Positions 12,405-47,467 of a DNA stretch of 64,000 bases are shown piece after piece (positions within the stretch are counted from its first letter, which is position 1; the number at the start of each line of letters is the position of its first letter). This DNA is from Candidatus Tectimicrobiota bacterium (GTDB taxonomy: Bacteria > JACPUC01): contig JACPUC010000026.1 of the NCBI GenBank assembly GCA_016192455.1, positions 78,902-142,901 of the forward strand. The letters are read 5' to 3'. The position numbers and the translations under genes are program-made. The notes below the pieces were generated by a model. It saw nothing but the letters and a program-made list of their open reading frames with translations, was not told where the DNA came from and ran no database searches.

Positions 12405-13129
12405 TGGCAAGCCGCGCGGCACGCCCCCTTGCGACTCGCTGGGAGCGGAGGCTGCGAAGCGTCTCGACCTGGATTGCCCTGCTGCTGGCGCTTGGGGTGG
12501 GACAGAGCGCCGCCCTGGCGCTGCTCCTGGAGCGCGCGCCCGGCGGCGGCGGGGACTGGCGCCAGGTGGGGAACGCCTCGGAAGGCGTGGGCCCGCTGGG
12601 GGCAACGCCATCGCTCGCGCAGCAGCGGCAGCGGCCCTTCCCCGATGTCTACTACCACGCCGACAAGGTCATCCGCTTCAGGCTTGGCGCGGGTTCGCTG
12701 GCGCTCTTCAATGAGAAGGGGGAGCCCACCCGCGTCCACAATGATCCGCAGCAGGCGCTCGGGCCGCCTGATCACGGCCTGCAAGGCTGGCCGTACACCG
12801 GCGCGGTGTCGCTGGGAAACGGCGGCGAGATCATCCTCGGTTTCCCCACCTGCATCGAGGATGGCGAGGGAGACGATTTCATCGTGCACGAGATCGTCAC
12901 GCCGGAGCGCGCCGAGGTCTTCGGCAGCCTGACGCCGGAGCCGCGGGACTTCCGCCTCCTAGGCACCGCCAGCGGCACGACGCGCTTCGATCTTGCCGCC
13001 GCCGGCGTGCAGCGGGTCTACCTCATCAGGATCGTGGACCAGAACGACGTCCGCACCCCTTCGCCCTTTGCCGGCTTCGATGTGGACGCGGTGGAGGTGA
13101 TCCACCCGTGCCAGCCGTTCACGAGCTGA
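12404..13129 (+). CDS. hypothetical exported/membrane-anchored protein
   Basis: ATG overlaps the PRTase stop (TGATG) with a GGAGGA RBS. N-terminal TM/signal STWIALLLALGVGQSAALALLL. No family recognised. Confidence 0.5.
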   Translation: MASRAARPLATRWERRLRSVSTWIALLLALGVGQSAALALLLERAPGGGGDWRQVGNASEGVGPLGATPSLAQQRQRPFPDVYYHADKVIRFRLGAGSLALFNEKGEPTRVHNDPQQALGPPDHGLQGWPYTGAVSLGNGGEIILGFPTCIEDGEGDDFIVHEIVTPERAEVFGSLTPEPRDFRLLGTASGTTRFDLAAAGVQRVYLIRIVDQNDVRTPSPFAGFDVDAVEVIHPCQPFTS

Positions 13130-13210
13130 GCGCGGGCGCCGCAGGAGCCCATCGGCCAGCCGCCACCGCCGGCCTGGATGACTCATCACCCGTGCAGGGA
13201 GGAGCAGCGC

Positions 13211-17685: not shown

Positions 17686-18477
17686 CTCGGTCGTCCTCGC
17701 CTCATCCTCTCCTGAAGCCTTGACGGTCAGCCTGGGACTAGGGCGTTCGAGCGGCGGCCAGGACCTCGCCTCAGGCGTCGAACTCGCTGCCGAAGCACGC
17801 TGCCGGCTTCAGCTCTCCCCCTGAACACGCATCGTCACCTTGCTCCATTCTCTTGAATAGGAAAGTACCACGAGGCCAGCGCCGCCTTCTCCCGGGCCTC
17901 GCCGCTCAGTGCCGACGCGACTCGACAGCGGCGGCGAAGTTCGGCCCAGGCGCGGGAACGTCCCTTCTTGCGGAGTACCACTCCTGAGAATGGAGGCACA
18001 ATCCGTGCCGAAGCCGTGCTGAGTGCGAGGCTTTGTTCAGGCTCGGCGGCGCGGCGAAGCTGGAAGGCGCGTCGATGGGCGCGAATCTGGGCGGCCGCCT
18101 CGCGGCGCCTGCCGCGAACCTCACGAGCGTCCATGAGACGTTATCAGCCAGGATTACGAGGGGCTCGACGGCGGTGCGTCCCAGGTCGGATGCGGGGAGG
18201 CCGCCGGAGAGACAAGGGGTTGCAGGCAGAATTTGCCGTGAAGTTCTAGCGCAAATACTTGGACAGGAACGCCGGCACGGGCCCGCCAGCCTGACGGTTG
18301 ATCTTCGGGATGGAGAGCGCGCATCTTGGGGTGATCCACCTCCCCCATCCCTCGGCGCCGGCTCTCCTTACAACCTGGGGCCGGCTTTTGTTCTCATCGG
18401 GGCTATGGTAGCATTCCGCCAACGCGTAACGCGACGACCGTCGCGGACCTTCCCGAGTTCATCCACGAGGATCCCAC

Positions 18478-19101
18478 ATGAGCGCGAGGCGCGTCATCAC
18501 CCTGCGCGAGTATACCGACTACCTCTGACCCTGGTGCAACAACTCAGCAGTTCGGCTGCAGAAGATCGCCCAGGAATTCGGGGAGCGGGTTGACGTGGAG
18601 CCGCGCAGCTTCCTGCTGCGTCCGGAGCCGGATGCCACTGCCACCTTCACCTCGTACCGGGACATGCACTGGCGGCAGGCCCAAGCCCAGGAAGAGGCCG
18701 GGGAGTTCACCATCCCCAGCATCGGCACCCCTCTCCCCAGCGGCAGCTTCCCGGGGCAAGAGGCGGCAAAGGCCGCCAAACACCAGGGAACTGCGCTGTT
18801 CCGGGCCTACCATGCGCGCCTCTTTAAGGCGTTCTTCCAGGAGCATCGCAACCTCACCGAGCGCGCCGTTCTTGAAGAGCTGGCCGCCGAGGTCGGCCTT
18901 GATCTCGAACTTTTCCGCGCCGATCTGCAATCGGGCGCCTGCCGCGAAGAGGTCATCGCCGACCACCTCGAAGCCGTCAGCCGCTATGGGATCACCGGAA
19001 TCCCCACCGTCATCGTTGACGGCAAAGAGGCCATCGTCGGAGCCGTGCCGACAGAGGTGTATCGCAGCGTCATTACGCGCCTCCTCGAGGCGCAGCCCTG
19101 A
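18478..19101 (+). CDS. DsbA-family thiol:disulfide oxidoreductase, probable selenoprotein (Sec encoded by in-frame TGA at 18526..18528 in U-P-W-C redox motif)
   Basis: ATG 18478 (RBS GAGGA) then MSARRVITLREYTDYL-TGA-PWCNNSAVRLQ... runs in frame into track ORF 18595..19101 (DsbA C-terminal half ...YGITGIPTVIVDGK). Hairpin TCAGCAG-TTCGG-CTGCAGA at 18544..18562, 15 nt after the TGA. Confidence 0.7.
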
Positions 19102-28569: not shown

Positions 28570-30927
28570 TCAACCTTTTCCGTATCGCCATTGTATTTCA
28601 CCGCACTGACATTGCACCCACTCCGCGCTCTCAGCGTCGGCCAACCAAACTCCCCTGCGGCACGACGAACATATGAACGACTCAAGGGCTTTTTCACAGG
28701 CGTCAATCACCTTAACCGCTTCCTGGCGAACTAAATCGAGTGTGTGAGTTCCACGGTTGGCCCAGGACACAAGCAGCCTATCCGCTTTGTCAAGCGCGCC
28801 CGTCGCATCCGAATGGGCTACGTACTCCTGTCCCACCTTTTTCCGGAAGCACTTCTTCCCGTCCGCCACGAAGCGATCGAGAAAGTCGTGCGCTATACGT
28901 TTGTCATTCTTTTCGGCGCGAAGGTAAGGCAATCTGATTCGAAGGCGCTCAGCGATCAGTGCGAGCTCGACGTCCATGATTTTCCTGGCATCAGTTCCCG
29001 CCGAGTCAGGACGATCATTGAGCTGGGCACGAGCGTCGTCGAAGGTCGTCGTTTTGTGCGACCATCGAATACCAACCGTCGGCGTCTCATAGGGCAACAG
29101 GGTCTTAAAGGTCCAACTGTTGCCGTGAAGCTGCTGCCTAAGCTCTGTGTACCACTCACGATCATGTGTCAAGATCACCACCTGCCGCTTGGCGAACTCC
29201 TTCTCCAGCAGCTCTCTAATCATGCCTCTGTGATTCCGATCGAGACTAATAACCACATCATCGAGGAAAAGGGGTCTATCCATCTTGGCTTCGCGCTTAG
29301 CCATCGCTAAGAAGATACAGAGACCGAGGCTGTTTCTATAGCCCTCCGATAAGGTAAGCCTTGGCGATTCCTGTTCATGGCCGTGGAAGTTCAAGCCAAT
29401 ATCGATGGCTTTATCCACATCATTCGGAAAGTACAGGCGCACATTTTCGATTGGTTCTCCAGGGTGCAGGATAGACCACATTGATTGGATATCTACAGAG
29501 ATATCCTCAATCACCTTTTGTGACCGAAGTCTGATCTCCTCACGGACACCCTTTTCAAGCGAACTAACAAAATCTCTCAGAGCTTCAGCACGAGCCACTG
29601 CTGCCGCTTGCCCCTTACCCTCGATCACAGCTTTGCCCACCTCGACGGTCTGCCGGTCGGTCGAGAGCTGGCGGACATCGGGAGGCGCGTCCTCCCACGC
29701 CTTCCTTGCTAAATTGATCACCGGAAGCAGATTGGCCTCAAGTGTCTTGAGGTCTGCATCGTTGCAAGAGGTTCGAAGCACGTCCACGTTGAAGCTGTCC
29801 AAAAACGCAATCCGGTCAGCGAGCGGACCCTTGGTAATTTCGTCGCGCCAGGCCTTGATCGCGGGCTTTGAAAGGTTGGACTGGAGCGATTTACAGGTGT
29901 CACAGAGAGTCCCAACTTCTGCTTTGCGGGTATTGTAAACGTTGATGATTTTATGAAGCCGCTCGCGCTCCGACTTCAAGTGTGCCTGAAGGTTCTCCAA
30001 CGGAATGGCCCGTCCGCAGGCGGGACAATTGACTTCTTTTGCTTCTCCCAATTTGTCGAGGAACGTGACGGTCGTCTGCAACACCTCCAATTTCTCAGCG
30101 ATCAGAGGATCAACAGAGTCAGCAAACTTCATGCTAACCGAGCGCACGGCATCAATGCAATGCTTAAGGTTAATTTCGGCTACATCTTGGAGTGCGAAGT
30201 TCCTTCTCTGGTCGGCCAAGGAGCGGTCGATCCGCGTCTCCAGCTCCGCCTCCAACTCTTTGCAGCGAGATAGAGGGTCCTTCGTGGTGGCCTCGTTAGC
30301 GCAATACCTCGCGTGGAGTGTCGCTATCTTGCTGGCGATCTGGTCATCGTTGTCCGCACCAAATGTCGCCGCACGACTGTTCTTTATCCTCCCAAGCGCA
30401 ACCTTAGTGTCCTCAAACTTCGACTGTTGCGCTATCATCTTTGAGAGCTGCCGGAGGTTCTCGGCAGCAACCTCCATTTGGTGAAGTCCGAGGAGCGGAA
30501 GGAGGGTGGAGTACTTGTCTCCCTTAGTGTCGTGAATGAAGGCCGCAACCTCGTCCTGCCTCAGTACCGTGCGGTGGTATTCCCAAGTGGGCATCGCGAC
30601 GACCTCCGCACCGGAGCTTTTCGGAGAGCCGTCCGGCTTTATCTGGACCGTGAGCTCCGCGTCGTTTGTGAATGTGATCCTTAGTTCTGTCTTCCGGTCC
30701 CTCGGCTTATGTGTATTAGGTATGGCCTTCTCCTGGTGTTTCCCGCTGTACTCGTGTGAGAGATGACCAATCCTGCCATTGTGAAGAACGTACTCAACAG
30801 CATCGACGAAAGACGATTTTCCCGCTCCATTGTTTCCGTACACGACCATTGACTTGCTGTCGGGATCCAACGCCACTGGGTCGGCGGCACCCCGGAACCA
30901 CGACAGTTGGATGGACTTGATTCTCAC
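28570..30927 (-). CDS. Rad50/SbcC/RecF-like SMC-type ABC ATPase with coiled-coil zinc hook and novel C-terminal Zn-ribbon domain
   Basis: GTG start. N-lobe MRIKSIQLSWFRGA...VVYGNNGAGKSSFVDAVEYVL (Walker A). Hook-like CPACGRAIPLE...LCDTC in mid coiled coil. C-lobe LSEGYRNSLGL (signature), RPLFLDDVVISLD (Walker B/D-loop), VVILTHD (H-loop). Then ~190 aa unrecognised ending CSSCRRGVW...WVQCQCGEIQW. Confidence 0.8.
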   Translation of the reverse strand: MRIKSIQLSWFRGAADPVALDPDSKSMVVYGNNGAGKSSFVDAVEYVLHNGRIGHLSHEYSGKHQEKAIPNTHKPRDRKTELRITFTNDAELTVQIKPDGSPKSSGAEVVAMPTWEYHRTVLRQDEVAAFIHDTKGDKYSTLLPLLGLHQMEVAAENLRQLSKMIAQQSKFEDTKVALGRIKNSRAATFGADNDDQIASKIATLHARYCANEATTKDPLSRCKELEAELETRIDRSLADQRRNFALQDVAEINLKHCIDAVRSVSMKFADSVDPLIAEKLEVLQTTVTFLDKLGEAKEVNCPACGRAIPLENLQAHLKSERERLHKIINVYNTRKAEVGTLCDTCKSLQSNLSKPAIKAWRDEITKGPLADRIAFLDSFNVDVLRTSCNDADLKTLEANLLPVINLARKAWEDAPPDVRQLSTDRQTVEVGKAVIEGKGQAAAVARAEALRDFVSSLEKGVREEIRLRSQKVIEDISVDIQSMWSILHPGEPIENVRLYFPNDVDKAIDIGLNFHGHEQESPRLTLSEGYRNSLGLCIFLAMAKREAKMDRPLFLDDVVISLDRNHRGMIRELLEKEFAKRQVVILTHDREWYTELRQQLHGNSWTFKTLLPYETPTVGIRWSHKTTTFDDARAQLNDRPDSAGTDARKIMDVELALIAERLRIRLPYLRAEKNDKRIAHDFLDRFVADGKKCFRKKVGQEYVAHSDATGALDKADRLLVSWANRGTHTLDLVRQEAVKVIDACEKALESFICSSCRRGVWLADAESAEWVQCQCGEIQWRYGKG

Positions 30928-32638: not shown

Positions 32639-33439
32639 CTAAGTGACATCTGGAAAGTCCGGTTCAAGTTGCAGGACGTCGGCGATCTTCGTGTAGGTGT
32701 TAAAGAGTTGCGCCGTCTGCACCACCTCCCTGATGCCTTTCTCGGTGACGCCGAGGCGCAGGGCCTGGGTGCGGTGCAGATCAAGACCGAAGGGGGAGCG
32801 CGCCGCCACCGCGACTCCCAGGGCGATGCATTCCTTGAACTTGCGCCTCAGGACGCGATCGGCGAAGGCGGCCTGCACCGTGTTCCAAGTGTCGCGCAGG
32901 TAGCCCGGATCGCTTGCCAGGTAGCGATAGACCGCCGGCACGTCCGTCGTGCCGTAGTAGGCATTGATGTCGGCAAAGATCGGCAGCACGCCGCGATCCA
33001 GCTCGTCATCGGCGGGGAGCGGCACAAGCGGCTGACGCGCCCCGCCGGCCGCCGCGAAGGGGAGCGGCAGCACCAGGCTCTCCGCGAGCGACAGGAGGCC
33101 GTTCGTGGCCCCCGTGACGAAGGCGGTCTCGTACCAGACGGCGTCGTTCTCCATGCCCTGCAGCTTCCCGGCTGCGGTGTGGAAGTTCGTTCAGTAGCGA
33201 CAGGAATTCATGCCGCTGACGGCGGCGGCGATGATCTCCTTCTCGGCGCGCCTCAGCTCGCCATCCGGCATGGCGCGCTTCATGGCGCGGCCGTTGTGAT
33301 CGCGGAACTCCGGCAGCGCCAGGAGCACGCGGCCCATCTTCGGGGTGAAGTCGATCTTGAACCAGGCGCGCGAGGCGGCGAAGAGCTTCTGCTCCTCCGC
33401 CGAGTACTCCTCCGCGCCGCGGATACGTACGGTGGCCAT
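32639..33439 (-). CDS. AhpD/carboxymuconolactone-decarboxylase-family protein, probable selenoprotein (TGA at 33193..33191 gives C-R-Y-U-T-N-F-H = CxxUxxxH)
   Basis: Track ORFs 33191..33439(-) (...AAVSGMNSCRY) and 32639..33154(-) (MENDAVW...) are in the same frame, separated only by TGA plus 12 sense codons (TNFHTAAGKLQG). Read-through reconstitutes the AhpD CxxCxxxH active-site spacing with Sec in place of the second Cys. Hairpin GCAGC-CGGGAA-GCTGC at 33175..33160, 15 nt after the TGA. Confidence 0.65.
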
Positions 33440-36159: not shown

Positions 36160-36519
36160 TCACCCTGCGGCCGAGGATGACTCGTTGGCCTCCGGGGGCG
36201 CCAGCTCCATGTCCGGCAGGTGGGGATCACCGCGCCGATGCACGTTGGTGCTGATCATGACGGCGCAGCCCGGGCAGAAGTATTGGCGGCAGACCATGTC
36301 GTCGCGCGGCGACAGCGCGTTGAGCGGGTTCACCTCGGCGAGGGGCACTTCGCGGTAGACGGCGCCCTGCTTCGGGTCCCGCGACACCGGGCCGTAGACG
36401 TGGCCGCAACGGTTACAGATGAGCACCAGGCCGCCCTCCTGTTCGGCCACCTCGAGGGCTTCGCCGATGCGCAGCCCCGGGTAAATCCAGCCCGAGGCTC
36501 GCTTGCTTTGCTCGTCCAT
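36160..36519 (-). CDS. acetone/acetophenone-carboxylase gamma-subunit-like small zinc-ribbon protein
   Basis: 119 aa with CNRCGH and YFCPGC Cys pairs, directly downstream of two HyuB-like genes. Confidence 0.55.
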   Translation of the reverse strand: MDEQSKRASGWIYPGLRIGEALEVAEQEGGLVLICNRCGHVYGPVSRDPKQGAVYREVPLAEVNPLNALSPRDDMVCRQYFCPGCAVMISTNVHRRGDPHLPDMELAPPEANESSSAAG

Positions 36520-36579
36520 CCCTGATTCCCCCCAAGGAGTTCGCTCCCGGCGCGGCCCCTGCGCAGGGCGAAGCGAGCC

Positions 36580-38493
36580 TCAGGCGCCGCCGGCCGCCCC
36601 CACGCTCCATCCCTCCACGGCCAGGCTTGTCCCGCGGCGCCCGCGGCGCACGGCGTCGCGGGTCTTGGCGGTCGCCAGCAGGTCGGGCGCCAGGCTCTGC
36701 GGATCAAGTACGACCCCGTAGAGGCGGACCGCGCTCTGCACATCGCAGAGGCCCTGCGCCGCGTCGGCGCTGACAAGGTGCGGCTCGCGCTCCAGCGGAT
36801 CGCCATAGCCGCCGCCGCCGCAGCAGTACGTGACAATCGCGTCGCCGTTCTCCAGCATCGTCATGTCCTTGGCGGCCAGGACGGCACCCTCGACGGCGCC
36901 CATCTCCTCGCTGCCGCCGGGCAGGGAGCGGCCTGCCGCCGGGGCGCCCTGCGGCTGCCATGCCCTGCGGTAGACGACGTTCGCGTTGACGCTGCCGGGA
37001 AGGCCTCCCATGAGGCCGCGCGCTTCGCTCTGGTTGATGCCGTGGCCGAAGACGAAGCAGCGCACCGGCGAGGCGGCCTTGTGGACCAGGCGCCCCAGCT
37101 CCAGGCCCGCGCCGCCGCGGTACTTTCCGGGTCCCAGGGTGGCGGGCTGCTCCTTGCGGTAGAGGTAGAGGAGCGGGTAGAGCCGCTCCACCGTCTCGAT
37201 ATTCGACATCGCCATCTTCGGCGAGCCCGGCGTGCCCTCCACGTCGAGGCCGTCGCGCGTGCTGCGGGCGCCGCCTCCTCCGCCCGTGTCGAGCATCGTG
37301 GCCGTGAAGTAGCGGCCCCGCTGGTCGAGGCCGGAGAAGTTCGCCCCGATCCACCCCGGCCAGCCCGTCGCCATGAGCTCCCCGCGGTAGCGCTCGCTGC
37401 AGGCGTACATCTTCGCGATCGCCTGCATGCAGACGTTGAAGGTCATGAAGGTGGCCGCCACCGTCGCCGCGCTCACGGCGGCCGGGTGGCGGGCGTTGTT
37501 CACGGTCCCCTCCTCCGAGATGATCTCCACCAACCCTGAGATCGCCCCGGTGGCCCACGGCATGTCGTAGCAGAGCAGCGTCAGCATGGCGGCCATGACC
37601 CCGCCCCACAGGCCGGTGTAGGTGCAGTTGATCATGCCGGGCGCCTGGGGGCTGGTGCCGCGGAAGTCGAAGGTGAGGCGCTCGCCGCGCTTCGTCATCG
37701 CCACCTTGATCTCGTAGAGCGCGTCGGTGCTGCCGTCGTGGTCGATGTAGCCGTGCTCGTACCAGGCGCCGTCGGGCAGCTCCGCCAGCCGCCGCCCCAG
37801 GCGACGCCGCACGTCCTCGAGTAGCCGCTCCTGCACCGCGAGGAAGGTGTCGACGCCGTACGTCTCGATGATCTCGGCGATGCGCTGACGCGTCTTGTTG
37901 ATCGCCGCGATGCGGGCGCGCAGGTCGAGGGCGTTGAACTCCGGGGTGCGGCTGTTGCGGATGAACATGCGCTCGACGTCGGGCCGCAGCCGGCCTGCTT
38001 CGACCACCTTCAGCGGCGGCAGCACCGGCGCCTCGCCGTAGATGTCGCGGGCGCCGACGACGAAGCTCCCCGGCACCGGCCCCCCCACGTCCATCTCGTG
38101 CATGCAGAGGCCGGTCCAGCAAACGACGCGGCCCTCGTGGTGGATCGGCGCCACGACGATGTAGTCGTTCATGTGCACCGCCCCCACCCAGGGGTCGTTG
38201 GTGAGGAACATATCCCCCTCGTGGATACCCGGGTCGCGGCTGTAGTCCTTGACGATGTTCTTCACCGCGATGTCAATGGAGAGCGACAGGCGCGTCACAT
38301 AGACGCCGATGAAGAGAGTGTCGCCCCTGTACGACATAAGGGCGCTGTTGAAGTCGTACGCCTCGTAGACCACCGGCGAGCCCGACATCTGCGCCGCCAG
38401 CAGCCCCTGCTCGTCGTTGATGGCCCACAACCGGTGCCGCAGCACCTCGTAGGTGATAGGATCGAGGGTCTCCCCTCGTGGTGCAGCCTGCAT
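36580..38493 (-). CDS. hydantoinase B/oxoprolinase-family (HyuB; ketone carboxylase alpha-like) paralog 2
   Basis: MQAAPRGETLDPITYEVLRHRLWAINDEQG... is collinear with and near-identical in stretches to 39137..41038. RBS GGAG. Confidence 0.85.
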   Translation of the reverse strand: MQAAPRGETLDPITYEVLRHRLWAINDEQGLLAAQMSGSPVVYEAYDFNSALMSYRGDTLFIGVYVTRLSLSIDIAVKNIVKDYSRDPGIHEGDMFLTNDPWVGAVHMNDYIVVAPIHHEGRVVCWTGLCMHEMDVGGPVPGSFVVGARDIYGEAPVLPPLKVVEAGRLRPDVERMFIRNSRTPEFNALDLRARIAAINKTRQRIAEIIETYGVDTFLAVQERLLEDVRRRLGRRLAELPDGAWYEHGYIDHDGSTDALYEIKVAMTKRGERLTFDFRGTSPQAPGMINCTYTGLWGGVMAAMLTLLCYDMPWATGAISGLVEIISEEGTVNNARHPAAVSAATVAATFMTFNVCMQAIAKMYACSERYRGELMATGWPGWIGANFSGLDQRGRYFTATMLDTGGGGGARSTRDGLDVEGTPGSPKMAMSNIETVERLYPLLYLYRKEQPATLGPGKYRGGAGLELGRLVHKAASPVRCFVFGHGINQSEARGLMGGLPGSVNANVVYRRAWQPQGAPAAGRSLPGGSEEMGAVEGAVLAAKDMTMLENGDAIVTYCCGGGGYGDPLEREPHLVSADAAQGLCDVQSAVRLYGVVLDPQSLAPDLLATAKTRDAVRRGRRGTSLAVEGWSVGAAGGA

Positions 38494-38663
38494 GGTTCTC
38501 ACTCCGCGGCGGTTCCCGCCGCCGCATTGTTCCACCGATACGGAAGATCGGCATCTCGGTGCGGCCCCGGATTCGCTTCCTGCCTGCCTCGAAAGTAGGC
38601 GCGGACTTGGTCGATTTCACGTGATGATCAAGATGAAGGTCATGCGGCCAAGTGTCCTTCAGC

Positions 38664-38996
38664 TCTGCGCTCTCTGTGCCTCCGCGGTTCAATGGAGTGC
38701 GCCGCAGAGACATAGAGGACGCGGAGAAGGGAGGGGAAGGCGCCACCGACGCAGCGGGGATGCACAGCGATTTCCGCCTGCCTCGGCGTTCAGCCGTGGC
38801 CCCTCGCATCCCCATGGTAGGGGCGGTTCGCGAACCGCCCCTACGGTCGCTGGGATGAAAGCCTGCCGCGAACATAGGTACCTACGTGGTCTATCGCACG
38901 CGATGCTGAGGCTCCCTGGCACGTCCTACACTCTCTGCGATCTCTGCGCCGCTGCGGTTCAATGGAGTGCACCGCAGAGACGCAGAGGACGCGGAG
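38664..38996. repeat. pair of ~63-bp direct repeats (38664..38726 and 38933..38996, about 90% identical) flanking a REP-like palindrome (38818..38845) inside a 600-bp intergenic spacer
   Basis: Read directly: CTCTGCG(C/A)TCTCTG(T/C)GCC(T/G)C(C/T)GCGGTTCAATGGAGTGC(G/A)CCGCAGAGAC(A/G)(T/C)AGAGGACGCGGAG. Confidence 0.65.
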
Positions 38997-39136
38997 GTTT
39001 CGACAGGCAAGATGCTTGTCCCAGGCGCACTTGGTAGCAAAAAATTCTCGACGAGGATCGGCAAGCCGGGCCGGCCAGCATACCCCATTTTCATCGGTTC
39101 GCGGGCAGGCGACCCGCCCATGCGCAGCTATCCTGA

Positions 39137-41038
39137 TTATGCCGCCGCCACCGGCGTACTCGTCGCCCGGCGCTCGCGGCGGATGGCGTCGCGGCACACG
39201 GCGGTGGCTTGCAGATCAGGCTTGCAGGTCTCGGCATCGACGATGACGCCGTAGATGCGCTCGGCAAGGTCGCGGTCGCACAGCCCCAGGGCAACGTCCT
39301 CGGCGACGAGGTACGGATCGCGCTCCAGCGGATCGCCGTAGCCGCCGCCGCCGCAGCAGTAGGTGACGAGGACGTCGCCGTTGTCCATCGTGGTGTGGTC
39401 CTTCGCCGCCATGACGCGGCGTTCTCCCGACCCGAACTCCTCCACGCCGCCCGGCAGCCGCGTGAGCCCTGCCGTGCCCGGCCCGCCGGCGCCGGGGCGC
39501 AGGCTCGGCTGCCGCAGCAGGATGTTGCTGTTGACGCTGGCCGGCAGGCCCCCCAGGAGGCCGCGCGACTCCGGCTGGCTGACGGCATGCCCCACCACGA
39601 GGTTGCGCAGCGGCTGCGGCGCCTTGTGCACCAGGCGCGCCGTCTCCAGGCCCACGCCGCCGCGGAACTTGCCGGCGCCGGGGGTGTGCGGGTGCTGCTT
39701 GCGATAGAGGTAGAGGATGGGGTAGAGGCGCTCGTTGGTCTCGATGTTCGAGATCGCCATCTTCGGCGAGCCCGGCACCCCCTCCACGTCGAGGCCGTCG
39801 CGGTTGCTGCGGGCGCCGCCGCCGCCTGCCTGGTCCATCAGCATGGCGGTGAAGAAGCGCCCGTGCTGGTTCAGGCCGGAGTAAAGCGCTCCGGTCCAGC
39901 CCGGCCAGCCCACGGCGATGAGCTCGCGGCGATAGCGCTCGCTGCAGGCGTACATCTTCGAGATCGCCTGCATGCAGACGTTGCCGGTCATGAAGGCGGC
40001 GCTGATCGTCGCCATGCTCACCGCCGCCGGATGCCGGGCGTTGTTCACGGTGCCCTCTTCCGAGATCACCTCGACGATGTCGTAGAGCGCCCCGCTGGCC
40101 CACGGCATGTCGTAGCAGACGAGGTTGAGCAGCGCCACCATGACGCCGCCCCACAGGCCGGTGTAGGTGCAGTTGATCATGCCGGGCGCCTGCGGGCTGG
40201 TGCCGCGGAAGTCGAAAATGAGGCGCTCGCCGCGCTTCGTCATCGCCAGTTTCACCTCGTAGATCTCGTTGCGGTTGCCGTCGTGATCGATGTAGCCGTG
40301 CTCGCACCAAGTGCCGTCGGGCAGTTCGGCGAGACGGCGGCGCACGCGGCGCTGCACGTCGGCGATGATCTGCTCCTGCACGACGAGGAAGGTCTCGACG
40401 CCGTAGGCCTCGATGACCTCGAGAAGGCGCTGGCGGGTCTTGTTGATGGCGGCGATGCGGGCGCGCAGGTTGAGGGCGTTGAGCTCCGGCGTGCGGCTGT
40501 TGCGCAGGAAGAGGCGCTCGACGTCCGGGCGCAACCGCCCCTTCTCGACGATCTTCATTGGCGGCATCACCGGCGCCTCGCCGTAGACGTCGGTGGCCCC
40601 CACCACGAAGCTCCCCGGCATCGGCCCGCCCACGTCGTTCTCGTGCATGCAGAGGCCCGTCCAGCAGACGATGCGCCCGCCGTGGTAGATCGGCGCCACC
40701 ACGGTGTAGTCGTTCATGTGGATGGCGCCGAACCAGGGGTCGTTGGTGAGGAACATGTCGCCGTCATTGATGCCGGGGTCCTTGCCGAACTCCTTCAGGA
40801 GGTTCTTCACGGTGATGTCGATGGTCAGCGAAAGGCGCGTGGTGTAGACGCCGACAAAGAGGGAATCGCCGCGCTGCGTCAGCAGGGCGCTGTTGAAGTC
40901 GTACGCCTCGTAGACCACCGGCGAGCCCGACATCTGCGCCGCCAGCAGACCCTGCTCGTCGTTGATGGCCCAGAGGCGGTGGCGCAGCACCTCGTAGGTG
41001 ATGGGATCGATGCCCGGCTGCGTGTTTGCGTCGTTCAT
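39137..41038 (-). CDS. hydantoinase B/oxoprolinase-family (HyuB; ketone carboxylase alpha-like) paralog 1
   Basis: MNDANTQPGIDPITYEVLRHRLWAINDEQG... RBS GAGAAGGA. Confidence 0.85.
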   Translation of the reverse strand: MNDANTQPGIDPITYEVLRHRLWAINDEQGLLAAQMSGSPVVYEAYDFNSALLTQRGDSLFVGVYTTRLSLTIDITVKNLLKEFGKDPGINDGDMFLTNDPWFGAIHMNDYTVVAPIYHGGRIVCWTGLCMHENDVGGPMPGSFVVGATDVYGEAPVMPPMKIVEKGRLRPDVERLFLRNSRTPELNALNLRARIAAINKTRQRLLEVIEAYGVETFLVVQEQIIADVQRRVRRRLAELPDGTWCEHGYIDHDGNRNEIYEVKLAMTKRGERLIFDFRGTSPQAPGMINCTYTGLWGGVMVALLNLVCYDMPWASGALYDIVEVISEEGTVNNARHPAAVSMATISAAFMTGNVCMQAISKMYACSERYRRELIAVGWPGWTGALYSGLNQHGRFFTAMLMDQAGGGGARSNRDGLDVEGVPGSPKMAISNIETNERLYPILYLYRKQHPHTPGAGKFRGGVGLETARLVHKAPQPLRNLVVGHAVSQPESRGLLGGLPASVNSNILLRQPSLRPGAGGPGTAGLTRLPGGVEEFGSGERRVMAAKDHTTMDNGDVLVTYCCGGGGYGDPLERDPYLVAEDVALGLCDRDLAERIYGVIVDAETCKPDLQATAVCRDAIRRERRATSTPVAAA

Positions 41039-41126
41039 GAGCGCAGTCCTTCTCAACACGGCGAGCGCCATGCTATTCCCGCACCACCGCGCCGCCGCTC
41101 GGGGTCATGCTTCGCCGCAAAATAGG

Positions 41127-43220
41127 TCACGGCCACGTAATGCTGAGATTCCCATAGGCATCGACGCGCGCCAGGGACGCGACCGGCAGGACGATGGTGT
41201 CCCCCATGCGCTCGATGACGGCCGGGCCGCTGATCTCGTGCCCGAAGCGCAGCGCCTCGCCGCTGTAAATCGGCGTGTCATGGAACTCGCCGTCGAAGTA
41301 GGCCCGCCGGGAGCCGCGCAGGGCCGCGGAGGCATCGGCGGGGACCGCCGCCTCCTGGCGCTCGATCCGCGGCGTAAACACCTCGTGGGTGCCGTCGACG
41401 CGGAAGGTGATGAACTCCGTGCCCGCCTCGTGGTAGGCGCCCCCCTTGCCGTAGAGCTCCTCGTACTGCACGTGGAAGCGCGCCACGATCGCCTCCGCCA
41501 CCTCGGGGGTGAAGGGCTGCCGCGGCGTCGCCACTCCCAGCTCGTGCACCTGCATCTGGTAGCGCATGAAGACGCTGCGCTCGAGGGTGACCCCCGCCGC
41601 GGCGATCCCCTCGTCCTCGAACTGCGCCAGCACCTGGCGCTCGAGGTCGGCATAGATGCCGTCGATGCCGCGGCAGACCTCCGCCCCGTACGGGCTCTTC
41701 GTCGGGAAGGAGCGCTCGGCGGTGTGCACGAGGTCGGAGGTGATGATGCCGAAGGCCGAGAAGACCGTCGAGTTGGCGAGAACGCAGACCGAGTGGGCGC
41801 CGATGTCGCGCCCGAAGAAGGGGGCGTGGGTCGGCCCGGCGCCGCCGTAGGAGAAGAGGATGAACTGCCGTGGGTCGTAGCCGCGCTCGATGGTCGAGCG
41901 CCGCACCAGGTCGGCCATCTGCGCGTTGGTGATGCGGAAGATACCGGCCGCCGCCGCTACCACGTCCATGCCGAGCCGCGCCGCCAGGCCCTCGAGCGCC
42001 TGTTCGGCACGCCCGCGGTCGAGCCGCATGCGCCCGCCGAGGAAGTTCTCCGCGTTGAGGTAGCCGAGGACGATGTTCGCGTCCGTAACGGTCGGCTGCT
42101 CGCCGCCGCGGCCGTAACAGGCCGGTCCCGGCATCGCCCCGGCGCTGGCGGGGCCGACGTGCAAGAGGTTGTCCTCGTCCACCCAGGCGATGCTGCCGCC
42201 GCCGGCGCCGATGGTCTTGATGAGAACCTTCGGCGCCAGGAAGGTGTACTGCTCGACCACCGGCTCTTTCTCGAGCTGCAAGGAGCCGCCGGCCACCAAG
42301 CTGACGTCGAAGGAGGTGCCTCCCACGTCGGTGCAGATGATGTTCGCCGCCTCGTAGAGCTGCCCGAAGTAGCGCGACCCCAGCGTGCCGCCGACCGGCC
42401 CCGAGTCGAGGAGCATGACGCCGCGACGCTGCGCGAGCTGCGTCGTCGTGAGGCCGCCGTTCGACTGCATGACGAGGAGCGGCCGGCGGTAGCCTTCGCC
42501 GCGCAAGGCCGTCTCCAGCCGGCCCAGATAGTCCGCCACGCGCGGCCCGAGGTAGGCGTTCAGCAGCGTGGTCACCGAGCGCTCGTACTCGCCGAGCACC
42601 GGGGCGATCTGCGACGACAGGCTGACGAAGAGGTCGGGGTGCTGGCGCGCCAGGTAGTCGCCGACGGCTTCCTCGTGGGCGGGATTGATGAAGGACCAGA
42701 GGAAGCAGACAGCGACGGCGCGCACCTCCCTGGCTCGCAAGGCGTCCACGGCGCGCTTCACGTCGTCGAGGTCGAGGGGCACGATGACCTCGCCGGCGAA
42801 GTCGATGCGCTCGGCCACCCCCATGATGCAGGGGCGGGTGATGATCGGCGGCTCCGGCTTGCGCATGGCCACGGCATGGATCATCTCGCGCTCCGAGAGG
42901 CCGGCGCGCTTCACCATGGCGCGGCCGATCGGCACCGTATCCTCGTGGCCGCGAGTTGTCAGCAGCCCCGTCTTCACCCCCTTGCGCTCGATCATGGCGT
43001 TGGTGGCGATGGTGCAGCCGTGCATGAAGTGCTCCGTCTGCGCCAGCAGCGCGCCGCGGCTCAGCTCAAGCTGCCGCGCGGCCACCTCCACGACCTCGAG
43101 GACGCCGCGGGCGGGATCCTCCGGCGTGGTGTCGCCCTTGGCAATCCAGGTGCGGCCCTGGGCATCCATGACGACGCAATCCGTGAACGTCCCCCCGATA
43201 TCGACGGCGATCTTGTACAT
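41127..43220 (-). CDS. hydantoinase A/oxoprolinase-family (HyuA; ketone carboxylase beta-like)
   Basis: Internal Met MYKIAVDIGGTFTDCVV (ASKHA ATPase fold N-terminus) with AGGAGG RBS. Confidence 0.85.
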   Translation of the reverse strand: MYKIAVDIGGTFTDCVVMDAQGRTWIAKGDTTPEDPARGVLEVVEVAARQLELSRGALLAQTEHFMHGCTIATNAMIERKGVKTGLLTTRGHEDTVPIGRAMVKRAGLSEREMIHAVAMRKPEPPIITRPCIMGVAERIDFAGEVIVPLDLDDVKRAVDALRAREVRAVAVCFLWSFINPAHEEAVGDYLARQHPDLFVSLSSQIAPVLGEYERSVTTLLNAYLGPRVADYLGRLETALRGEGYRRPLLVMQSNGGLTTTQLAQRRGVMLLDSGPVGGTLGSRYFGQLYEAANIICTDVGGTSFDVSLVAGGSLQLEKEPVVEQYTFLAPKVLIKTIGAGGGSIAWVDEDNLLHVGPASAGAMPGPACYGRGGEQPTVTDANIVLGYLNAENFLGGRMRLDRGRAEQALEGLAARLGMDVVAAAAGIFRITNAQMADLVRRSTIERGYDPRQFILFSYGGAGPTHAPFFGRDIGAHSVCVLANSTVFSAFGIITSDLVHTAERSFPTKSPYGAEVCRGIDGIYADLERQVLAQFEDEGIAAAGVTLERSVFMRYQMQVHELGVATPRQPFTPEVAEAIVARFHVQYEELYGKGGAYHEAGTEFITFRVDGTHEVFTPRIERQEAAVPADASAALRGSRRAYFDGEFHDTPIYSGEALRFGHEISGPAVIERMGDTIVLPVASLARVDAYGNLSITWP

Positions 43221-43728
43221 GGTGCGCTCGTCCACCTCCTGCGGCATCGGCGGCGCGTGCCACCGGCGGGCGCCCCGAAGGGTCGCTGCGATCACGATGG
43301 CTGCGCTCCCCCACGGCGATGCTGACAATTCTACTCAGGTTCCGCGTTGGCACAAGGGCGCTGCTCTCGAACGGCCGCGCCCCGTTTCGTTCTTCATCAG
43401 CGCCCGGCGAGCCCCACGGTCGGGAGATAGCGAGAATTCATCGAGGCGGCTGCGCAGCTCTTGCTTTCTTCGCAGAACTGTGGAAATATTATTTTCCCCT
43501 GGGGCAGAGGGCCGCCGGGGTTTTCTGTGCGGCGCTCCGGCGGCCGGCGTGGAAGGGTGCTGTCCCGCTGGCGCCACGAAGGAGGCACTGAAGAGGCGAC
43601 GGAGAGAGCGCGTTCCCGGCGGGGTTCCTCAGCGGGCCCTACCGCCGCGACGTGCTCAGGGCGTCTGCGTCTTTCCTGCTGCGCATCGCGTGCCTTGACC
43701 TTGTTGTCGATGTTGAGGAGACCCGTCC

Positions 43729-44763
43729 ATGAAAGCAGTTGTCATCCACGAGCACGGCGACCCGGAGGTCCTGAAGGAAGAGGAGTACCCAACACCGCAA
43801 CTCGGCCCCGAAGACGTGCTGGTGAAGGTGAAGGCGTGCGGCGTCAACCAGGCAGACTTGATGATCCGACGCGGCGACGTGCGCATGTATCCCAAGCTGC
43901 CCCACATCCTCGGTAGCGAGATCTCCGGCGTCGTCCACAGCGTCGGCAGCGCGGTGACGCAGTGGAAGGGGGGAGAGCGGGTCATCGTCTACCCCGGATT
44001 CGGCTGCGGGCACTGCGAGTTCTGCGTCAAGGGGCATCTCTATAGCTGCAATACCTACAAGTACTTCGGCACCCAGATGCAGGGGACTTACTCGGAGTTC
44101 GTGAAGGCTCCCTGGTACAACATGGTCCCCCTGCCGGAAGAAGTCTCCTTCGTGGAAGGGGCTGCCATCCCCATGGTGATGCTCACCTCGTGGCACATGG
44201 TGGTGGACCAGGCGAACGTGCGGCCCGGCGAGATCGTCCTGGTGCACGCCGCCGGTAGCGGCATCGGCTCGGCCTCGATCCAGATCGCCAAGCTCTGCGG
44301 CGCCACCGTCATCGCCACCGCCGGCTCCGACGACAAGGAGGAGCTGGCCAGAAGCCTCGGCGCCTCGCACTTCATCAACTACCGCAAGACCGACTTCCGC
44401 GAAGAGGTGGGGAAGATCACCAACAAGCGCGGCGTGGATGTGGTCATCGAGCACACCGGCGAGTTCACCTGGGACAAGAGCGTGCGCTCGCTGGTGAAGC
44501 ACGGCCGCCTCGTCGTCTGCGGCGCCACCTCGGGGCATAACGGCTACACGGATATCCGCTACGTCTACTACAAGCACCTCAACATCATCGGCTCGACGCT
44601 GGGCACCATCGAGAACCTGAAGCACGCGCTGCAGTATGTCGCCGCGGGCCGCATCCGCACCGTGGTCGATCGGGTCTATCCCATCAGCGAGGTGCGCAAG
44701 GCGCACGAGATCATGGAAGCCCGCCAGAACAAGGGCAAGCAGGTGCTGCAGATGTGGGACTAG
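43729..44763 (+). CDS. zinc-binding MDR-family alcohol dehydrogenase/quinone oxidoreductase
   Basis: MKAVVIHEHGDPEVL...GSEISGVV...GCGHCEFCVKGHLYSC (structural Zn Cys cluster), AAGSGIGS Rossmann. Confidence 0.85.
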   Translation: MKAVVIHEHGDPEVLKEEEYPTPQLGPEDVLVKVKACGVNQADLMIRRGDVRMYPKLPHILGSEISGVVHSVGSAVTQWKGGERVIVYPGFGCGHCEFCVKGHLYSCNTYKYFGTQMQGTYSEFVKAPWYNMVPLPEEVSFVEGAAIPMVMLTSWHMVVDQANVRPGEIVLVHAAGSGIGSASIQIAKLCGATVIATAGSDDKEELARSLGASHFINYRKTDFREEVGKITNKRGVDVVIEHTGEFTWDKSVRSLVKHGRLVVCGATSGHNGYTDIRYVYYKHLNIIGSTLGTIENLKHALQYVAAGRIRTVVDRVYPISEVRKAHEIMEARQNKGKQVLQMWD

Positions 44764-46555: not shown

Positions 46556-47467
46556 ATGACCCTCCCATCCAGCGTCAGCATTGTCGAGGTGGGGCCGCGC
46601 GACGGTTTGCAGGGAGAGGCGCGGCACGTCGCCACCGCCGACAAGATCGCCCTCATCAACCGCCTGAGCGCCTGCGGCCTGCGGCGCCTCGAGGTGTCGT
46701 CGTTCGTCAGCGCCAAGGCCATCCCGCAGCTTGCCGACGCGGCCGAGGTGCTGGCCGGCATCGAGCGCGCCCCGGGCGCGCGCTACAGCGTTCTGGTGGC
46801 GAACGAGCGCGGCTACGAGAGCGCCGCGGCGGCGGGCGCCGACGAGGTGGCCGTCTTCCTGTCGGCCAGCGAGGCCCACAACCAGCTCAACGTCGGCAAG
46901 AGCATCGCGGACACCCTGGCGAAGCTGCGGCCGGTGGCGCGGCGGGCGGCGGCGGACGGGGTGCCGGTGCGCGGCTACGTCTCCACGGTCTTCGGCTGCT
47001 CCCTCGCCGGCAAGGTGGAGGCGGCGCGGGTGGAGCGCATCTGCGGCGAGCTTGCCGACATGGGGGTGGGGGAAATCTCGCTGGGGGACACCATCGGCGT
47101 GGCGCACCCGCCGCAGGTTCAGGCCATGATCGAGGGGCTGCGCGCGCGGCTTGGCGACCTGCCACTGGCGCTGCATCTCCACGATACCCTCGGGCGCGGG
47201 CTGGCGAACGTCTGGGCGGGATTGCAGGCGGGGATTCGCGTCTTCGACAGCTCGGTCGGCGGGCTGGGAGGCTGCCCCAATACGCCGGGAGGGGCCGGCA
47301 ACATCGCCACGGAGGACCTCGTGAGCCTGCTGCGGGCCATGGGCATCGCCTGCGGCGTGGAGGAGGAGGCGATCCGCGCGGTGGCGCGCTTCGCGGCGTC
47401 GCTCGTCGATCACCCCCTGGCCAGCCACTGCGCTTACGCCGGCGGCACCGCGGAGGAGAGAGCGTGA
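46556..47467 (+). CDS. hydroxymethylglutaryl-CoA lyase
   Basis: SIVEVGPRDGLQ..., DTIGVAHP, LHLHDTLG, GGLGGCP motifs. Confidence 0.85.
   Translation: MTLPSSVSIVEVGPRDGLQGEARHVATADKIALINRLSACGLRRLEVSSFVSAKAIPQLADAAEVLAGIERAPGARYSVLVANERGYESAAAAGADEVAVFLSASEAHNQLNVGKSIADTLAKLRPVARRAAADGVPVRGYVSTVFGCSLAGKVEAARVERICGELADMGVGEISLGDTIGVAHPPQVQAMIEGLRARLGDLPLALHLHDTLGRGLANVWAGLQAGIRVFDSSVGGLGGCPNTPGGAGNIATEDLVSLLRAMGIACGVEEEAIRAVARFAASLVDHPLASHCAYAGGTAEERA

Follow-up and report, generated by a model that had tools for sequence, protein, structure and literature searches.

Introduction

A DsbA-like protein with a UxxC motif (COG2761; nine sequences) was introduced as a new selenoprotein family in the 2005 analysis of Sargasso Sea sequences by Zhang, Fomenko & Gladyshev (Genome Biol 6:R37; PMC1088965). 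The family was later found in the genomes of Anaeromyxobacter, Desulfovibrio and Desulfotomaculum (PMC1794560), and a 2026 AEM review carries it as "DsbA-like protein form 1, PF01323, UxxC" (PMC13188914). CMD-like and AhpD-like selenoproteins with a CxxU motif are likewise already known (PMC1088965, PMC1794560, PMC13188914). On the side of the Cys-containing proteins, FrnE acts in the cytoplasm as a disulfide reductase/isomerase of the DsbA family and carries a CP(W/F)C motif, and some FrnE proteins have no C-terminal CxxxxC tail (PMC8945050). As far as the bSECIS model of Zhang & Gladyshev (2005) is summarised in PMC13188914, it comprises a loop of 3-9 nt with a G in one of its first two positions, an upper stem of 4-16 bp, a spacing of 16-37 nt and a minimum free energy (MFE) of at most -7.5 kcal/mol.

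Here, we analyzed a 64-kb stretch of DNA (hereafter the window) from a Candidatus Tectomicrobia MAG, in which a first-pass annotation had proposed a selenocysteine (Sec)-containing DsbA-like protein. The gene at 18478-19101 was correctly identified, and it belongs to a family already known as selenoprotein since 2005. Judged from the sequence, it very probably encodes a genuine Sec-containing DsbA/FrnE-like oxidoreductase of the cytoplasm.

Results

An in-frame TGA interrupts a DsbA-like gene

The gene lies on the + strand, starts with ATG at 18478, stops with TGA at 19099-19101 and comprises 207 codons upon translation, including the proposed Sec17. A Shine-Dalgarno-like GAGGA (18467-18471, +) can be read in the sequence 6 nt 5' of the ATG. 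Without a change of frame, MSARRVITLREYTDYL is followed by the TGA at 18526-18528 (+) and then by PWCNNSAVRLQKIAQEFGERVDVEPRSF..., which opens with PWCNNSAVRLQ, and all coordinates previously given for the ATG and the in-frame TGA hold. This TGA, the proposed Sec codon for residue 17, occupies the first position of a U-P-W-C motif (18526-18537), and the full-length gene (18478-19101, +) was classified as a DsbA-like (FrnE-type) selenoprotein gene based on its translation, the Pfam domain PF01323 and a match to the FrnE structure 5cnw.

As had been pointed out in the first-pass annotation, the ORF caller splits the gene. The ORF list starts at GTG 18595 and gives a shortened ORF of 168 aa (18595-19101, +), whose product is found in the protein database as an entry of the same length with 99% identity (P0001), and further database entries of 168-188 aa also start just past the motif. 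A purine-rich GGGGAG is located 8 nt 5' of this GTG. Taken together with the absence of Sec machinery from the 64-kb window, this start site and the reading adopted by ORF and gene callers would be in line with a true stop at 18526, leaving either a pseudogene or a 168-aa protein devoid of the redox motif. However, strand 1 and the CxxC helix of the thioredoxin fold would both be missing from such a shortened product, and GC3 is coding-like before as well as after the TGA. When the window was scanned for in-frame TGAs flanked on either side by coding-like GC3, five sites emerged, only two of which, at 18526 (+) and 33193 (-), coincide with a Cys-containing redox motif.

Among the confident genes of the window, TGA is the commonest stop codon, and it also terminates gene 18478-19101; an alternative genetic code is thereby ruled out. 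Since TGA is the usual stop and ends this very gene, decoding at 18526 must hinge on local context.

The TGA replaces the first Cys of a CPWC motif

For protein and profile searches of the 207-aa product, the TGA was read as Cys. Residues 8-198 match the Pfam family DSBA (PF01323) over profile positions 1-189 of 191 (E 9.1e-25; 88 bits against a cut-off of 25.6). Because the match starts at residue 8, the 16 residues 5' of the TGA belong to the domain, and the concern voiced earlier that this N-terminal segment could lie outside it does not apply. The best solved relative is FrnE of D. radiodurans (5cnw; E 2e-13, residues 11-200), in which 16-IWSDIACPWC-25 aligns with 11-EYTDYL[U]PWC-20 of the window protein, so that the TGA column corresponds to FrnE Cys22. 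In the same way, YTDYL[TGA]PWC aligns with the YSDYLCPWC of five database proteins (P0003, P0005-P0008) and with other full-length Cys homologues (xSDYLCPWC). Both alignments bear out the proposal of the first-pass annotation that the TGA stands at the first Cys of CPWC. An invariant proline, Pro176, was found in both alignments (A1 and A2) within the sequence G-I-P-T (codon 19003-19005, +); from its position in the DsbA/thioredoxin fold, this residue probably represents the cis-proline loop opposite the CxxC motif.

The protein has no hydrophobic leader. Its redox motif U-P-W-C is located at residues 17-20 and is preceded by strand 1 only; with Sec at residue 17, a signal peptide could not be accommodated. 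The window protein shares with the FrnE subfamily (cd03024) an N-terminal CP(W/F)C-type motif without a signal peptide. Membership in the classical periplasmic DsbA proteins was considered as well and is ruled out by the missing signal peptide, by UPWC in place of CPHC and by the lack of a dsbB gene nearby. The chain ends with ...RLLEAQP at residue 207, and the sole Cys other than Cys20 is C154; the C-terminal CxxxxC tail, which many though not all FrnE members carry and which does not strictly define the subfamily, is thus absent. A search of NCBIfam provided no family-specific model, the best match being NF041057 with 44.8 bits against a cut-off of 190.

The gene is flanked by a divergent CheZ gene upstream and by genes for an M24 peptidase and a gamma-glutamyltranspeptidase downstream. 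This neighbourhood is not kept in distant relatives, and therefore no operon-based function can be claimed.

The TGA is conserved across more than ten phyla

Homologous loci were collected in a tblastn-confirmed scan with a five-sequence query alignment and one genome per species, resulting in 80 loci (L008-L087). The active-site codon is TGA in 75/80 of these and TGC or TGT in the remaining 5/80, which gives a ratio of Sec to Cys forms of about 15:1 among the nearest relatives, many of them from uncultivated phyla. Overall, 68-69 non-identical sequences carry the TGA, in addition to three further loci (L093-L095), and the peptide is kept on both sides of it. The non-identical homologues with TGA span more than ten phyla and include Nitrospinota, Methylomirabilota/NC10, Rokubacteria, Binatia, Dehalococcoidia, Acidimicrobiia, Rubrobacteraceae, Tectomicrobia/Entotheonella, Myxococcota and several proteobacterial MAGs. 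Since the peptide is conserved on both sides, decay of the gene is ruled out. Furthermore, the retention of the 16 upstream codons as protein in about 70 species, with TGA across phyla, is incompatible with independent nonsense mutations, and we consider a true stop at 18526 very unlikely.

The protein database contains full-length homologues (~205 aa) with xSDYLCPWC as well as many shortened entries of 168-188 aa. The DNA behind shortened entries carries an in-frame TGA at the position of the first Cys, as seen in a TARA contig with 70% identity (L001; FTDYL*PWC), in a locus with 44% identity (L005; FSDFL*PWC) and likewise in L093-L095. In the protein database, we mostly encountered full-length Cys forms and shortened entries, in contrast to the 75/80 genome loci with TGA; annotation hides the Sec forms.

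A single base change would be enough to turn TGC or TGT into TGA, and Cys forms of the family exist, so that a sequencing or assembly error in the gene of an ordinary Cys-containing DsbA-like protein has to be weighed. Against this stands the finding that three assemblies from separate sequencing runs (SRR12113426, SRR12113422 and SRR12113390) are base-identical across the site, TGA included; the first-pass annotation had regarded TGC or TGT upon resequencing as an outcome that would speak against its proposal. The TGA is also present in the 70%-identical TARA relative and in dozens of other species. An error at this codon is hence hardly conceivable, and a Sec codon remains the preferred reading.

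A candidate SECIS hairpin 3' of the TGA

MFE folding predicted a candidate SECIS hairpin, UCAGCAG-UUCGG-CUGCAGA (18544-18562, +), at a distance of 15 nt from the TGA. It consists of six pairs and one A.A mismatch, with a core of GCAG (18547-18550) and CUGC (18556-18559). A bulged hairpin had been reported here before; its position and sequence are confirmed, whereas the bulge is not, the A.A being an internal mismatch. The loop starts at nt 26-27 counted from the U of UGA, i.e. within the range of 16-37 nt, and the distance thus fits a bacterial SECIS, as had been stated. The stem of 4-5 bp with a 2-bp extension also fits the model in length but reaches -6.2 kcal/mol (22 nt folded in isolation) compared to the model cut-off of -7.5 kcal/mol. 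Positions 1-2 of the predicted loop (UUCGG or UCG) contain a G only if the top G-C and U.G pairs are opened, and the G-U belonging to the Val codon lies in the predicted stem.

The core of the hairpin is kept in the TARA relative (70% identity). Both sequences form GCAG(U)-UCG-(G)CUGC, whose centre lies 2 nt further 3' than the family consensus described below. In the MFE structure of 18520-18590, a possible lower helix (18530-18574, +) pairs CCUGG (18530-18534) with CCAGG (18570-18574), and the hairpin together with this helix reaches -12.5 kcal/mol. The lower helix is doubtful because its 3' arm is missing in the TARA contig, i.e. it is not conserved.

Stability alone does not set the hairpin apart from chance. 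Compared to dinucleotide shuffles, the MFE of the 71 nt at 18520-18590 showed a z-score of -0.63. Compared to synonymous recodings, the stability of the hairpin gave p values between 0.03 and 0.18; the p of 0.03 in a 9-codon test was matched by 7/61 control windows within the gene. Around the site, no Rfam family was found at the gathering threshold, and matches at E <= 10 were noise alone. The hairpin contains the codons TCA, GCA and GTT, which in confident genes are chosen in 0.9%, 2% and 2.6% of cases within their respective synonymous families; all three are kept in the TARA relative. As SECIS evidence, this run of rare codons was set aside as only suggestive, since 19% of the codons of the gene end in A or T and a second such run is present. 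The hairpin at 18544-18562 is a plausible candidate for a minimal SECIS.

Covariation supports a hairpin at the family level

For the family, we prepared an ungapped alignment of 69 non-identical Sec genes over 60 nt from the UGA, with columns counted from its U. In this alignment, columns 16-23 pair with columns 29-36, and the loop (columns 24-28) contains an invariant G25-U26 that belongs to a Val codon; the centre of the hairpin is located about 26 nt after the UGA. Paired cells amount to 68.7% compared to 56.4% in shuffles, and the covariation score of 0.26 (0.10 in shuffles) was reached by none of 500 shuffles. All slid controls scored below the family hairpin. The type of pair switches between members, for example between CG (26) and GC (23) or between UA (18) and CG (15). 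This family-level hairpin fits the published bSECIS model.

Bulk folding energies of the 54 nt after the UGA, compared to synonymous recodings in 73 homologues, gave a mean z-score of -0.25 for the Sec genes, and controls and Cys genes were equal or better. For these GC-rich genes, a mean z-score of this size shows that bulk MFE is blind to SECIS elements here.

Within the Dehalococcoidia/Chloroflexota, twelve loci (L037, L049, L052, L054, L059, L064-L068, L071 and L073) have their best hairpin about 4-10 nt nearer to the UGA. One Dehalococcoidia example, at nt 11-31 after the UGA, reads GCU-A-CAUC-ACGUC-GGUG-C-GGC and exposes the loop G-U at nt 21-22. This shift implies that the SECIS register varies between clades of one protein family.

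A UGA with C as the next base makes a leaky stop context, and TGAC is invariant in the family alignment. Together with the weak SECIS evidence for the window sequence itself, this could point to a UGA that is read through as Trp, Cys or Gly by a near-cognate or suppressor tRNA, or to a reassigned code. However, the site is the position of the catalytic Cys, which makes it a classic Sec/Cys pair, and the family hairpin covaries at bSECIS spacing. Moreover, the same window contains a second UGA with a CxxU motif and a canonical SECIS, as detailed in the following section. In view of these findings, readthrough by anything other than Sec appears highly improbable, and we continue to read the codon as Sec.

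A second selenoprotein gene in the window

The second site is part of a gene for a two-domain CMD/AhpD-like selenoprotein (32639-33439, -). From ATG 33439, 82 codons ending with ...AAVSGMNSCRY lead to the TGA at 33193-33191, followed by TNFHTAAGKLQ... and a TAG at 32639. The resulting C-R-Y-U-T-N-F-H is a CxxU-xxxH motif of the CMD/AhpD-like type. Once the TGA at 33193 is read through, the Pfam CMD score about doubles, from 35.9 bits to 69.5 bits, and the match comprises two stretches. The database contains a 100% identical match to the gene product (P0103), an entry assigned to a Candidatus Tectomicrobia MAG, and all 16 database homologues (16/16) are cut short at the point of the TGA, with no full-length Cys form among them. 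The same codon is TGA in three loci with 45-52% protein identity (L088, L090 and L091). With the CMD/AhpD-like protein as sole query, a scan of metagenomes returned no matches.

A canonical SECIS hairpin, GCAGC-CGGGAA-GCUGC (33175-33160, -), follows this TGA. In the form UGCAGC-CGGGAA-GCUGCA, 16 nt after the TGA, it has a G-rich loop, reaches -10.1 kcal/mol and is nucleotide-identical in the three related loci.

Regarding the decoding machinery, Pfam assignment of all large ORFs revealed no selA, selB or selD within the 64-kb window, and an ARAGORN search that covered the window and 1.3 Mb of related loci detected no tRNA-Sec. The families assigned to window ORFs include an AddA/AddB-type helicase-nuclease, several SDRs, CheZ, an M24 peptidase, a gamma-glutamyltranspeptidase, hydantoinase/oxoprolinase subunits, UbiD and rhodanese. 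Strong, if indirect, evidence for the use of Sec by the organism comes from two independent conserved sites of the Sec/Cys type that lie within 15 kb. It is solely the second selenoprotein gene that points to the presence of the Sec machinery and to a Tectomicrobia genome that would decode Sec.

Other features of the window

ARAGORN called three tRNAs in the window: tRNA-Leu(cag) at 13081-13166 (-) inside an SDR gene junction, an unusually long tRNA-Gly(acc) of 94 nt at 44197-44290 (-) inside a zinc-ADH gene, and a tRNA-Pro(cgg) of 98 nt at 46738-46835 (+) inside an HMGL-like gene. Rfam at the gathering threshold showed no tRNA in the window. These calls within coding ORFs of high GC3 are probably false positives.

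On the - strand, the region 36160-43334 encodes Hydantoinase_A, two Hydantoinase_B paralogues and a small ORF resembling the gamma subunit of acetone carboxylase, and this hydantoinase/oxoprolinase cluster adjoins genes for a UbiD-like decarboxylase, a tautomerase and an amidohydrolase. It may represent a carboxylase or aromatic-catabolism island that is unrelated to the DsbA-like gene. A 785-aa ORF of the SMC_N/AAA_13/AAA_15 ATPase type (28570-30927, -), whose GC3/GC2 falls outside the gene filter of the codon scan, may be related to defence or mobile elements.

Discussion

Following the bacterial Sec pathway (PMC13188914), SelB.GTP with Sec-tRNA(Sec) would bind the stem-loop that directly follows the UGA in the mRNA, in this gene the hairpin at 18544-18562. 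Sec would then be delivered to the ribosomal A site at UGA 18526 in competition with release factor 2, while UGA 19099, which is without such a context, would terminate translation. In the protein, Sec17 is expected from the fold to be an exposed nucleophile at the N-terminal end of helix 1 in the thioredoxin fold, facing the cis-Pro loop G-I-P176-T. By analogy with the fold and with FrnE, its reaction cycle would comprise the attack on substrate disulfides and a selenenylsulfide between Sec17 and Cys20. The comparison with D. radiodurans FrnE most likely places the protein among the cytoplasmic disulfide reductases or isomerases that act in oxidative or thiol stress. As the FrnE-type tail is missing, its recycling partner must differ from that of FrnE.

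The main value of the finding is the repair of annotation: callers give a fragment of 168 aa in which the catalytic motif is missing (P0001, and many entries of 170-190 aa), and NCBIfam holds no model that would rescue the family. Both selenoprotein genes would mark the Tectomicrobia genome as Sec-decoding and add two thiol-redox enzymes to its stress-defence inventory. Selenoprotein biology as known is unchanged by the finding. A broader reading, which we put forward only tentatively, is that the DsbA-like protein ranks among the most widespread and systematically truncated environmental selenoproteins, with Sec in about 75/80 loci from more than ten mostly uncultivated, largely aerobic phyla and no NCBIfam model, and that the sub-clade of the window and TARA sequences may use a minimal, register-shifted SECIS outside the loop rule of the bSECIS model.

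Among the described systems, classical DsbA (E. coli type, CPHC, partner DsbB) shares with the window protein the thioredoxin fold with an inserted helical domain, a CxxC-type motif and the cis-Pro loop, and sequence matches to DsbA structures are weak (E 1e-4). It differs in the points already named, i.e. the signal peptide, CPHC in place of UPWC and the DsbB partner. FrnE (DR_0659, 5cnw and others) is similar in the position of C-P-W-C, the lack of a signal peptide and the DsbA-type fold. However, FrnE uses Cys instead of Sec, and its active site is regenerated by a tail CxxxxC (residues 239-244) that the window protein does not have.

On the RNA level, the candidate hairpin resembles SECIS elements of the E. 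coli fdhF type and the bSECIS model in that it is part of the coding sequence, directly follows the UGA on its 3' side and has its apical loop within 16-37 nt. Most family members have the G-U in the loop, whereas in the window sequence the G-U is paired, the loop has no early G and the energy of -6.2 kcal/mol lies above the cut-off of -7.5 kcal/mol. The closest known system is the DsbA-like selenoprotein family itself, with the same Pfam domain, a UxxC motif with Sec first, widespread Cys homologues and a stem-loop directly 3' of the UGA. Compared by domain and motif, nothing essential differs from the published family (representative NIP15863.1 / AACY01178397); relative to the other members, the hairpin of the window is shorter than the consensus and shifted by 2 nt, and the host is a Candidatus Tectomicrobia MAG.
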